A stretch of DNA of 64,000 nucleotides from Thalia democratica (Eukaryota): contig OZ241831.1 in the NCBI GenBank assembly GCA_965202585.1, positions 9,362,001 to 9,426,000 of the forward strand, given 5' to 3'. A program made the position numbers and the translations under genes. Of the stretch, positions 54,028 through 56,722 are shown in pieces. Numbering within the stretch: position 1 is the stretch's first letter; each line of letters starts with the position of its first letter. The notes beneath the pieces are model-generated. The model saw only the letters and a list, made by a program, of their open reading frames with translations, did not search any database and had not been told where the DNA came from.

Positions 54028-54073
54028 ATTGGTCACACTTCGTCTACGTCCGTAACGCATTCAGAATATATAA
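54028..54073 (+). promoter_or_regulatory. Possible histone-type core promoter (inverted CCAAT plus TATA) upstream of the H3 fragment
   Basis: ATTGG at 54028-54032 and TATATAA at 54067-54073, 36 nt before the ATG, within a locally GC-richer patch. Short motifs are common by chance in AT-rich DNA. Confidence 0.4.
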
Positions 54074-54109
54074 GTAATAGTTTTAATTGAATTTATAGAA
54101 GAAACAAGA

Positions 54110-54187
54110 ATGACCTACACAAAACAAAGCGCCCGCAAATCAACTGGAGGAAAAGCTTCCGCAAGCAACTTGCCACACAATTTTTAG
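54110..54187 (+). pseudogene. H3: Histone H3 N-terminal tail fragment / 25-aa micro-ORF MTYTKQSARKSTGGKASASNLPHNF
   Basis: ATG ACC TAC ACA AAA CAA AGC GCC CGC AAA TCA ACT GGA GGA AAA GCT matches MARTKQTARKSTGGKA. After a 1-nt deletion the next frame gives RKQLATQ (H3 RKQLATK). H3 homology ends at about 54180, and the histone fold is not found nearby. Confidence 0.85.
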
Positions 54188-54435
54188 GGGTCTTACAATT
54201 TTGTTTTGTGAAAATTGTGAAAAAGAGGTTTTGTATAAATTTTGTAATTTTTACATTTTCTGGCCGCACTGTATACAAATTATGAAAATGCTTAGCGGGC
54301 TGGTCATTTTCACTCGCGGGTCAGTCATTCTATCCCTAGACCGGATTCAATTTAAAAATAAAAAAAGGTTTGGGGGCCGGTCATTTCACTCCACGGACCG
54401 AATCTGGCCAGCGGATCGTACGTTGCACACCCCTA
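54185..54435. mobile_element. hAT-like MITE remnant abutting the H3 fragment
   Basis: The right end GGACCGAATCTGGCCAGCGGATCGTACGTTGCACACCCCTA is typical of hAT termini. The left side begins TAGGGGT, matching only 7 bp of the TIR, and no TSD is seen. Confidence 0.55.
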
Positions 54436-55530
54436 ATCTAATACAATTATTTAATATTTGTTTGTAGTTTCAATAGTGTTACATAGACTTTTTTTAAATA
54501 GTTATTTTCAAATCTTAAGTTAAGTCATTCCTTTTTCTTAATTACTAACTATTTATTTTACCTAAAAATATCTATCATTGCTTAAAACTACTAGTTATTG
54601 ATAACACTTAGAAATGCTTATTATTACTTATTACTACCAATTATAAACCTGAGTATATAGATATACGCTTTTGATCATTATTTAATAATTTGCACCTGGT
54701 GATCTGCTTTTACCAGTGAAACTTAATCGTAACAAATAAACCCAAGTGCATTGTTATAAGAATGAATAAGAATAAATTAATTTAAAATGTGCGCTCTAAA
54801 AGGATTTATTTTTGACTTTGAGGTAATATTATTAGTCATATCATCTTCTAAGTAACGAACATAGTAATGTCTAAAATTAATTTTCTATGGTTTTTTAGAT
54901 TTAGTTTCAAACTTTTTTTTCTTCTAGTTAAGTTTTTTATTTCATTTCCGTCACTCAAACTAAAGACTGTAAAATGTTTTGGTATTTTTGAAATTTGTTC
55001 TATAGAAAATGAAGGTCAAGTATAGTTTTTATGAAACTTTGCATTGCAAGTTATGTCATTTGTTAGCCATCGTTTTGTCTCTATCTTATTTTTTGAATGT
55101 TTTTTAAAGAGTTTACTTTTAGATATATGAAAGCAACGTAGATATAAATAATCTCAAAACAAAAAAAAAAACTTGCGGGTATGATGTTGCATAAATTTAA
55201 ATAAATTAAAATATATTTCTGTAGACACATAATCGTGTAGTAAGTAAAGTTGTATATTATATTTTGTTTACCAAAATAATTAAAATTTTTTAATGTAGTT
55301 TGAATACTTTTTTTTTATTTTATACTATTTATTACTTTTAGAATTTAATTAGTTATTAAACAACTCTTTTCATCAATAATAATTAATTAACAAACATATA
55401 ATGCAAAATATACCAAGTGTTGAGATAAGTTTAAAGCATAGTTAGTTGAATTGATAGTTGTTTTTCTGCTAGTTTTTTAATTAAAACAATATCTATTTAC
55501 AGACTTAATAACATATAAGACTAATAAAAA

Positions 55531-56722
55531 ATGACTAAATTTGAGAAGAAAAATTATAGAAGTTCACAAGCAAATATTACTTTGACTTGTAAAACAATGA
55601 AAAAGAAAGCTAATAGCAAGTTAAAAAAAATTTCAGTAGAAAGGTTTGTCTAAAAATTATATTATATATCTATAGTGTGTAATTTATTAGTAACTTTAGT
55701 CGTTTACCTAAGCTTTCAAAAATCTTGTTTGTTATATTATACTAACTCTTCAATTAAAACGACCAGAAAACGTGTTCCACCCAGAAGACAAAACACGTTA
55801 AAAAATATCGCTCCGCTCAACGTCAAACTACGAACACCGACAATGGAAAATTCGAAGAGAAAACTAAGATCATCAAGCTTGAAAGATTTGAAAAGAGTTG
55901 CATGGGAAAAAAAGTTGGAAGTTGAAAGGACAATCCAGGAGGGACCAGATGACATTTTTAGTGGTTACTACAGAATGAACCCGGAGAGGCACTACGTTTT
56001 TACTAACAACCTCGTGATTAGAACAGACACCCAGGTAGACAGAACGATACCTGTTCCTGACGATGATATTCTTGGATTGGAGGATTTGAAAAGGTTTAAT
56101 CAGAAATGTCTTGACGATCCTGAAAAGCATTTTTTTGTGGATAATCTCGGTGGCAAAATGAGCCGTGGACTGTTTGCCAGGCATGCAATACCAGAGAGTA
56201 AGTTTCATTGTTTAAGTTATTATTCCAAAATAGCATATGTTATTTTTTATGTTTCCAATCTAGAGTAATAATTTTATAGTGTTAACTTTACCAACTAAAC
56301 AACTCGAGTTTACCTAACTTAACAACTGTTAATTTTCAGACACAATAACAGGTGAGTACACAGGCGAGCTTATATCAATGGAAGAATATTGTGAAAGAAA
56401 TGACATAAGAAAAAATACAGGAGCAAGCAACTACTTTTTCAATACCTGTATGAACATGGTAATAGACTCAACAGCGATTGGTAATCATACCAGGTTCGTC
56501 AACCACAATTGCGGAGACAAAATCAACTGCAGGGTCGAGTGTGCGGTGATCAACGAACTTCCGAGGAACTTTTTCGTCAGCAACGGAGCTATTGCAAAGG
56601 GTGAACAGATTTTATTAAATTACGGAAAGCAATACTTTAGTAAACTCGAGTGTCAATGTGAGTCGAGTAATTGCATTTCAAGAAAAAAAGTGAGTAAAGA
56701 CAGAAACGAAGCATATAAATAA
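55531..56722 (+). CDS. Stand-alone SET + post-SET domain lysine methyltransferase, about 308 aa. Exons 55531-55643, 55767-56197, 56340-56722
   Basis: Spliced frame 113+431+383 = 927 nt with no internal stop. Intron 1 has a TACTAAC branch site near 55740 before a CAG acceptor; intron 2 has a GTAAGT donor and a TTTTCAG acceptor. Motifs: RGLFARHAIPENTITGEYTGELI, IDSTAIGNHTRFVNHNC, GEQILLNYG (catalytic Tyr), post-SET CQCESSNC. The N-terminus is basic. The exon 1 assignment is less certain than exons 2-3. Confidence 0.88.

Follow-up and report, generated by a model that had tools for sequence, protein, structure and literature searches.

An H3-tail micro-ORF beside a SET gene is probably the decayed cargo of a multicopy Pack-hAT element

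The 64,000-nucleotide stretch of DNA analysed here (C7:9362001–9426000 of an AT-rich, 802-Mb eukaryotic genome, hereafter the window) raises the question of why a 25-codon open reading frame (ORF) resembling the tail of histone H3 should stand upstream of a gene for a SET-domain protein. The preliminary description of this locus offered two answers, an enzyme accompanied by its own decoy or substrate peptide, or an orphan H3 relic that had simply landed nearby, and it is the second that is borne out, with capture by a hAT-type element and subsequent transposition as its likely mechanism. The ORF is very probably the decayed remnant of an H3 promoter and 22 codons carried by a non-autonomous hAT-type transposon, a piece likely captured once, spread to at least six sites, and at one of these brought by chance close to an intact SET gene. 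This reading draws on the anatomy of an H3 piece enclosed by two transposon arms, on junctions shared by copies with different flanks, on disabled copies, on the lack of SET linkage elsewhere and on purifying selection acting upon the SET gene.

Intact H3 genes match the window fragment at 80–84% DNA identity over 249–333 bp (E down to 1.9e-72), far above chance level. The ORF (54110–54187, translated as MTYTKQSARKSTGGKASASNLPHNF) keeps K4, R8-K9-S10, T11 and K14 of H3, as first described, with substitutions A1T, R2Y and T6S, and the promoter-like patch reported ahead of it is likewise present, as an ATTGG (reverse CCAAT) at 54028 and a TATATAA at 54067. Set against an intact H3 gene, its first 48 bases show five differences. 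The retained residues are real, but the H3 homology runs past residue 15: the P16 codon has lost 1 nt, and in the segment that follows 18 of 19 bases are those of H3, reading RKQLAT in a different frame, so that the 25-codon ORF is a frameshifted H3 5′ end (codons 1–22) whose C-terminal ten residues are the product of the frameshift. Comparison with five H3 genes gives, besides the deletion, three non-synonymous codon changes and no synonymous ones. Altogether, bases 53830–54176, the latter marking the end of H3 homology, represent the promoter and codons 1–22 of an intronless H3 gene. Similarity continues for ~260 bp upstream of the ATG and is best to intronless H3.3-like genes on C2, with L009 the closest match to the promoter region (79.6% over 333 bp); five such parent-type genes (L009, L010, L090, L091 and L146) match in both promoter and codons, and canonical H3 copies in codons only. 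Both capture junctions are crossed without differences by contigs of one public run, and are therefore not an assembly artefact. The five dispersed C2 genes (at 55 and 81–85 Mb) themselves encode Asn at residue 31, some of them with KKIATKS instead of KQLATKA, and an intron-containing H3 class with Thr31 is found at C2:93–94 Mb.

The ORF is present as drawn, but the picture of a stand-alone micro-ORF does not hold, for the fragment sits inside a transposon that the preliminary description had not seen (Table 1). Free copies of this element measure ~2.4 kb and have 17-bp terminal inverted repeats (TIRs); in the window, ~350 bp of H3 DNA stand in place of ~1.2 kb of the element middle. Short TIRs together with an 8-bp target-site duplication are the marks of the hAT superfamily. 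Of the seven free copies examined, six have a 17-bp TIR at each end and target duplications of 8 bp without mismatch, the seventh having no recognisable left end (L085, in which no left arm was seen, was left out of this check), and by these features we take the element to be a non-autonomous hAT. The left end occurs exactly 406 times in the genome, against 0 control matches, and the representative 2449-bp copy contains no long ORF. The window copy is a truncated member of this group: its first 109 bp, including the left TIR, are absent, a search of the window even at short-word stringency returned no left end, and the combination of TIRs at both ends with a target duplication was accordingly not found there. 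It does hold a host-gene fragment between the arms of one TIR element, and the parent genes, the intronless H3.3-like genes of C2, lie elsewhere in the genome, as in a Pack-TIR. Elsewhere in the window, nested elements with inverted ends and internal 41-bp GC-rich tandem repeats at 44846–46648 are probably other non-autonomous DNA transposons, an ORF at 13413–13724 has a Pfam match to C5 cytosine DNA methylase (PF00145, E 8e-7), and a further ORF follows it in a GC-richer patch (13901–14284).

Table 1. Positions in the window of the captured H3 piece, its host element and the neighbouring SET gene
Feature	Position	Strand	Description
Left arm of element, element positions 110–1008	52920..53829	+	73% identity to free 2449-bp copy
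Captured H3 upstream region and promoter	53830..54109	+	Aligns to DNA upstream of intronless H3.3-like genes on C2
25-codon micro-ORF	54110..54187	+	H3 codons 1–15, 1-nt deletion, then read-through into transposon arm
Right arm of element with terminal inverted repeat (54419–54435)	54179..54435	+	80% identity to element positions 2204–2449, which map to 54190–54435
Target-site-like 8-mer	54436–54443		Directly after right TIR
Predicted own promoter and 5′ intron of SET gene	55143..55502	+	TATAAA 55143, donor-like GT 55244, acceptor AG 55501–55502
SET gene, coding exon 1	55531..55643	+	Basic, subfamily-specific N-terminus, no H3-like motif
SET gene, coding exon 2	55767..56197	+	Family-specific region and SET start; 18 unnamed relatives
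SET gene, coding exon 3	56340..56722	+	RFVNHNC, LLNYG, post-SET cysteines; Pfam PF00856, E 6e-13

Copies elsewhere in the genome reveal how this arrangement is distributed. The H3 piece was found in at least 12 copies (the window, C982, C7:9.585, two on C4, one on C10, two on C8, C7:34.1, C2:80.2 and two at C7:7.5 Mb); with scoring confined to the top 40 candidates per DNA search, these carrier counts are lower bounds. By their flanks these 12 carriers fall into six groups, or insertion lineages, five having different right flanks and the sixth being without a right end. The right junction is identical in 10 aligned copies and in one of the C7:7.5 copies, the left junction in all five aligned carriers, and the capture junctions recur on C2, C4, C7, C8 and C10. 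Both TIRs are retained at C8:57.189 and C7:34.1, the latter with a target duplication matching at seven of eight positions and the former with none (4/8). Identity among the four lineages compared is 74–81%, and the capture is therefore old. One insertion, duplicated locally, accounts for all three SET-adjacent copies (window, C982 and C7:9.585). An ordinary truncated orphan H3 pseudogene, with transposons inserted later on either side and no capture at all, would find a ready source in the many dispersed and decayed H3 copies of this genome (70 exact tail-motif matches), yet of the explanations considered here it is the least probable, because the sequences on either side belong to a single element, as its left and right arms in colinear order, and the junctions recur unchanged within different outer flanks on five chromosomes; the carriers with both TIRs, one of them with a near-perfect target duplication, largely refute it.

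Under the preferred reading of a captured and transposed H3 piece, the element would have acquired the promoter and codons by template switching during its repair or replication, and a transposase acting in trans would have mobilised it. The H3-carrying form would then have transposed to at least six sites, one insertion landing by chance 1.1 kb upstream of the SET gene. Loss of the left end would immobilise the window copy, and local duplication of the element together with the SET gene may have followed, yielding the copies at C7:9.585 Mb and C982. Capture of H3 and SET as one unit, by a Helitron or as a segment, was considered and rejected, as carriers elsewhere are without SET and eight tandem copies of the SET gene hold exon 3 only. 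A second, independent capture of an H3 5′ end was also encountered (L069:7754–8071, L070 and L072, at C7:35.1, 35.57 and 35.68 Mb, minus strand), in which the H3 promoter and codons 1–15 are fused to an unrelated frame; in L069 the fused frame stays open over 105 aa and matches no Pfam family, and in L070 and L072 it is frameshifted.

Precedents for such an element are available in animals. Tan et al. (2021, PMC8277862) describe multicopy Pack-TIRs, for which template switching followed by transposition is proposed, as a rare class in their survey (four cases in reference genomes), and state that at least 30% of Pack-TIRs are transcribed as chimeras. One of their examples, Pack-hAT-N8_XT of the western clawed frog, carries 291 bp of the CAPSL 5′ UTR (PMC8277862). 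The element described here resembles it in placing a host gene 5′ fragment of similar size (~350 bp) within a non-autonomous TIR element of the same superfamily, and resembles the animal multicopy Pack-TIRs of that survey in that a single chimeric structure recurs at several loci whose flanks differ. Unlike the Pack-TIRs presented there, its cargo is a histone H3 promoter with tail codons. Its copies are old (74–81% identity between lineages) and mostly broken, and unlike Ssk-FB4, the Drosophila example (PMC8277862), it gives no sign of a selected protein. A search of 12 supplementary files of PMC8277862 found no histone term, and the literature searched, mostly outside subscription journals and with bioRxiv supplements excluded, yielded no report of a histone-carrying Pack-TIR or of the SET family discussed below.

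The second partner at this locus, the SET gene, proved intact and on the same strand as the micro-ORF, in keeping with the preliminary description. It starts at 55531, 1344 bp past the micro-ORF stop, and comprises three coding exons with GT–AG introns that encode 308 aa. A 38-codon counterpart of its first exon, with the same donor, occurs at C7:36.03, and its third exon aligns to SETD2 (E 2.9e-9). Against three paralogs its dN/dS is 0.24, 0.20 and 0.21 (p ≤ 0.001), and all four splice dinucleotides are kept across those comparisons; with frame, splice sites and catalytic motifs intact, the gene is under purifying selection. A paralog at C7:41.57, which is without the element, also preserves frame and splice sites through the SET domain. 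Like SETD2, NSD1–3, ASH1L and KMT2C/D, the protein has RFxNHxC and xLxxxY motifs and post-SET cysteines, and methyltransferase activity may be predicted from these motifs. Unlike those enzymes it is small and stand-alone, with a family-specific N-terminal region, and belongs to an expanded family with unnamed relatives only. Its best solved relatives (SETD2, KMT2D, NSD3 and ASH1L) score nearly equally, at 36–40 bits, so that no single target lysine or subfamily is assignable.

Whether the captured promoter contributes to expression of this gene is a natural question. The TATAAA at 55143, the donor-like site at 55244 and the acceptor at 55502 are conserved in all five aligned subfamily copies, including two without an upstream H3 fragment, and for this reason the SET gene likely has a promoter of its own, near 55143, from which it would be transcribed. 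Exaptation of the H3 promoter would instead have it drive or add a SET transcript spliced to the acceptor at 55502, with the micro-ORF serving as an upstream ORF in the 5′ leader. Such a role would accord with the shared strand, the distance of 1.1 kb, the retained TATA and ATTGG, the conserved acceptor ahead of the SET ATG and the presence of the element in both full-length local duplicates, and chimeric Pack-TIR transcripts are described as common (PMC8277862). It is nevertheless improbable, given that the separate set of TATA, donor and acceptor is conserved in paralogs without the element, and that the H3 promoter of the window matches that of C7:9.585 at only 88% identity (H3 codons 93%, right arm 85%), compared with 96–98% for the upstream flank, spacers and exons.

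The more provocative proposal, that the 25-aa peptide is produced and that the adjacent SET enzyme binds or methylates it, predicts an association between the two that was not encountered in either direction. No SET match was found within 6–25 kb downstream of any of nine non-local H3 carriers, and H3-tail codons or promoter core, expected to co-occur with other copies of the SET gene, appeared in none of 43 SET-bearing paralog stretches (47 stretches searched, upstream cover being below 2 kb for a few), where the only matches were three AT-rich ones of 35–45 bp. Only the local lineage of three copies adjoins a SET gene. Nine of the 12 carriers have no ATG-linked ARKS frame, the ATG being lost, a stop gained, R8 lost, or the frame shifted before ARKS (automated codon counts were left out for the carriers on C4 and C10, where a misaligned deletion had inflated them). 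Even within the local lineage the two partners come apart, since the C7:9.585 duplicate combines a peptide frameshifted at codon 3–4 with a SET gene still constrained, and C982 a peptide identical to that of the window with a SET exon 1 disrupted by a stop (codon 10) and by a deletion of 1 nt. Decay of the H3 fragment looks neutral, and neither conserved linkage nor coding constraint on the mimic, the two marks of a histone mimic that were tested, was found. Since a GT is nowhere present in the micro-ORF, and the SET ATG is preceded by in-frame stops, a canonical spliced H3-tail–SET fusion is excluded. To the credit of an enzyme–peptide pair, both the window and C982 retain K4, R8-K9-S10, T11 and K14 behind an intact ATG; supply of the tail in trans is also conceivable because the window subfamily is without the in-cis KQTARK motif seen in 11 of 43 paralog N-termini (see below). 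Set against the missing linkage, the separated fates of peptide and enzyme, three codon changes that are all non-synonymous, ten C-terminal residues arising from a frameshift and the absence of a donor for fusion, this leaves the pair with a very slight probability.

Certain observations do count against a relic that landed by chance. The window copy is among only three of the 12 that keep the ATG through K9-S10, its TATA and CCAAT-like sites survive, its left side has neither TIR nor target duplication, and C8:57.189 has no duplication. The frequent chimeric transcription of Pack-TIRs (PMC8277862) weighs in the same direction. For a same-strand insertion upstream of a SET gene and within 2 kb of it, the rough a priori expectation is ~1e-3 (6 sites × ~50 genes × 2 kb/802 Mb); this estimate is post hoc, as the same story would have suggested itself beside any chromatin gene, and is therefore weak, though not nil. 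The carrier with both TIRs at C7:34.1 Mb (L071) lies ~1.9 Mb from the locus at C7:36.03 Mb that shares the window SET gene's first exon (L073), and with both on the same chromosome a local hop along C7 could, speculatively, account for the adjacency of H3 and SET. The verdict is that the window copy represents a truncated, decaying multicopy Pack-hAT beside a functional member of an unnamed SET expansion.

That expansion is of interest in itself. In this genome it gives 122 matches at exon level and forms arrays on C7 and C5, and its public relatives, retrieved by a profile-free full scan, are unnamed proteins; several are intron-free on ~1-kb contigs, as would fit mRNA of family members, and the window gene is not among them. 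The family-specific N-terminal region has no Pfam match above cut-off, and an ESM Atlas search with one relative (P0031) returned generic SET clusters only, the bacterial rows among these matches being no sign of transfer. Another relative (P0011, 802 aa) has two SET domains. Tandem copies at C7:9.44–9.57 Mb (L039–L051) and C982 (L077), mostly spaced at ~21 kb, contain SET exon 3 only, at 92–93% identity; eight of those at C7:9.44–9.57 Mb start at or just after window position 56187, and the array is closed by an inverted full copy at 9.58 Mb.

Within this family, the hexapeptide KQTARK, identical to H3 residues 4–9, occurs in 11 of 43 recovered paralog N-terminal frames, and others have related TGRKS or SARKS repeats. 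Its carriers are L094, L098–L103, L110, L111 and L114 (C7:41.6–42.1 Mb), as well as P0001, P0006 and P0031, with two occurrences in L100 and P0031. Shuffling of five tails produced any H3(1–39) hexamer in 54–607 of 300000 trials, results that do not amount to five independent tests since the tails share ancestry. Three sublineages of the present genome have the motif, and so has P0006, a protein that this genome does not encode (best match 47%) and that aligns to H3 residues 5–39 at 19 of 37 positions; all lie inside one 31-row clade (support 100/100), branching at its base without resolution. In the SET paralogs KQTARK is spelled with other codons than in the H3 genes. The window subfamily starts with another first exon, which by prediction joins on at the arginine codon of a matching KTTRK, and its gene would therefore have no KQTARK, which may have been lost in this lineage.

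Parallels to such a motif are found among established SET enzymes. G9a is said, in work attributed to Sampath and to Chin in 2007, to contain a histone mimic in cis. SETDB1 has an H3K9-like motif in cis (bioRxiv 10.1101/2025.10.22.683908). As in these two enzymes, the SET paralogs, although not the window gene, combine an H3K9-like motif and a SET domain in one polypeptide, with methylation here a candidate property read from sequence. The window gene differs from both in having no such motif, its micro-ORF being a separate, transposon-borne relic. In the paralogs KQTARK is possibly an in-cis histone mimic or automethylation site, and the tail bearing it is possibly a plain basic localisation or DNA-binding tail; that the motif is automethylated or read can be proposed tentatively, with the balance leaning somewhat against it. 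The two halves of the locus could be joined in one scenario, in which the family normally has an in-cis KQTARK tail, the window subfamily spliced it away, and the transposon then brought an H3 promoter and tail, producing a histone-promoter-driven SET gene with a decoy or substrate peptide in trans, but this is highly improbable. As an object of study the SET family with its KQTARK tails is a better lead than the H3-tail ORF.

The element itself adds an animal case, and a clear one, to the multicopy Pack-hATs, a class of which the published survey lists few (PMC8277862), and its cargo is a histone promoter that could switch on adjacent genes. It also counsels caution, since H3-tail micro-ORFs next to chromatin genes can be transposon cargo. 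In the basic-tail branch of the SET expansion, the exact H3 K4–K9 hexapeptide is kept in several diverged sublineages, and if KQTARK were indeed automethylated or read, this would be a G9a-like mimic recurring across a family of minimal enzymes, a notion easily tested in vitro.
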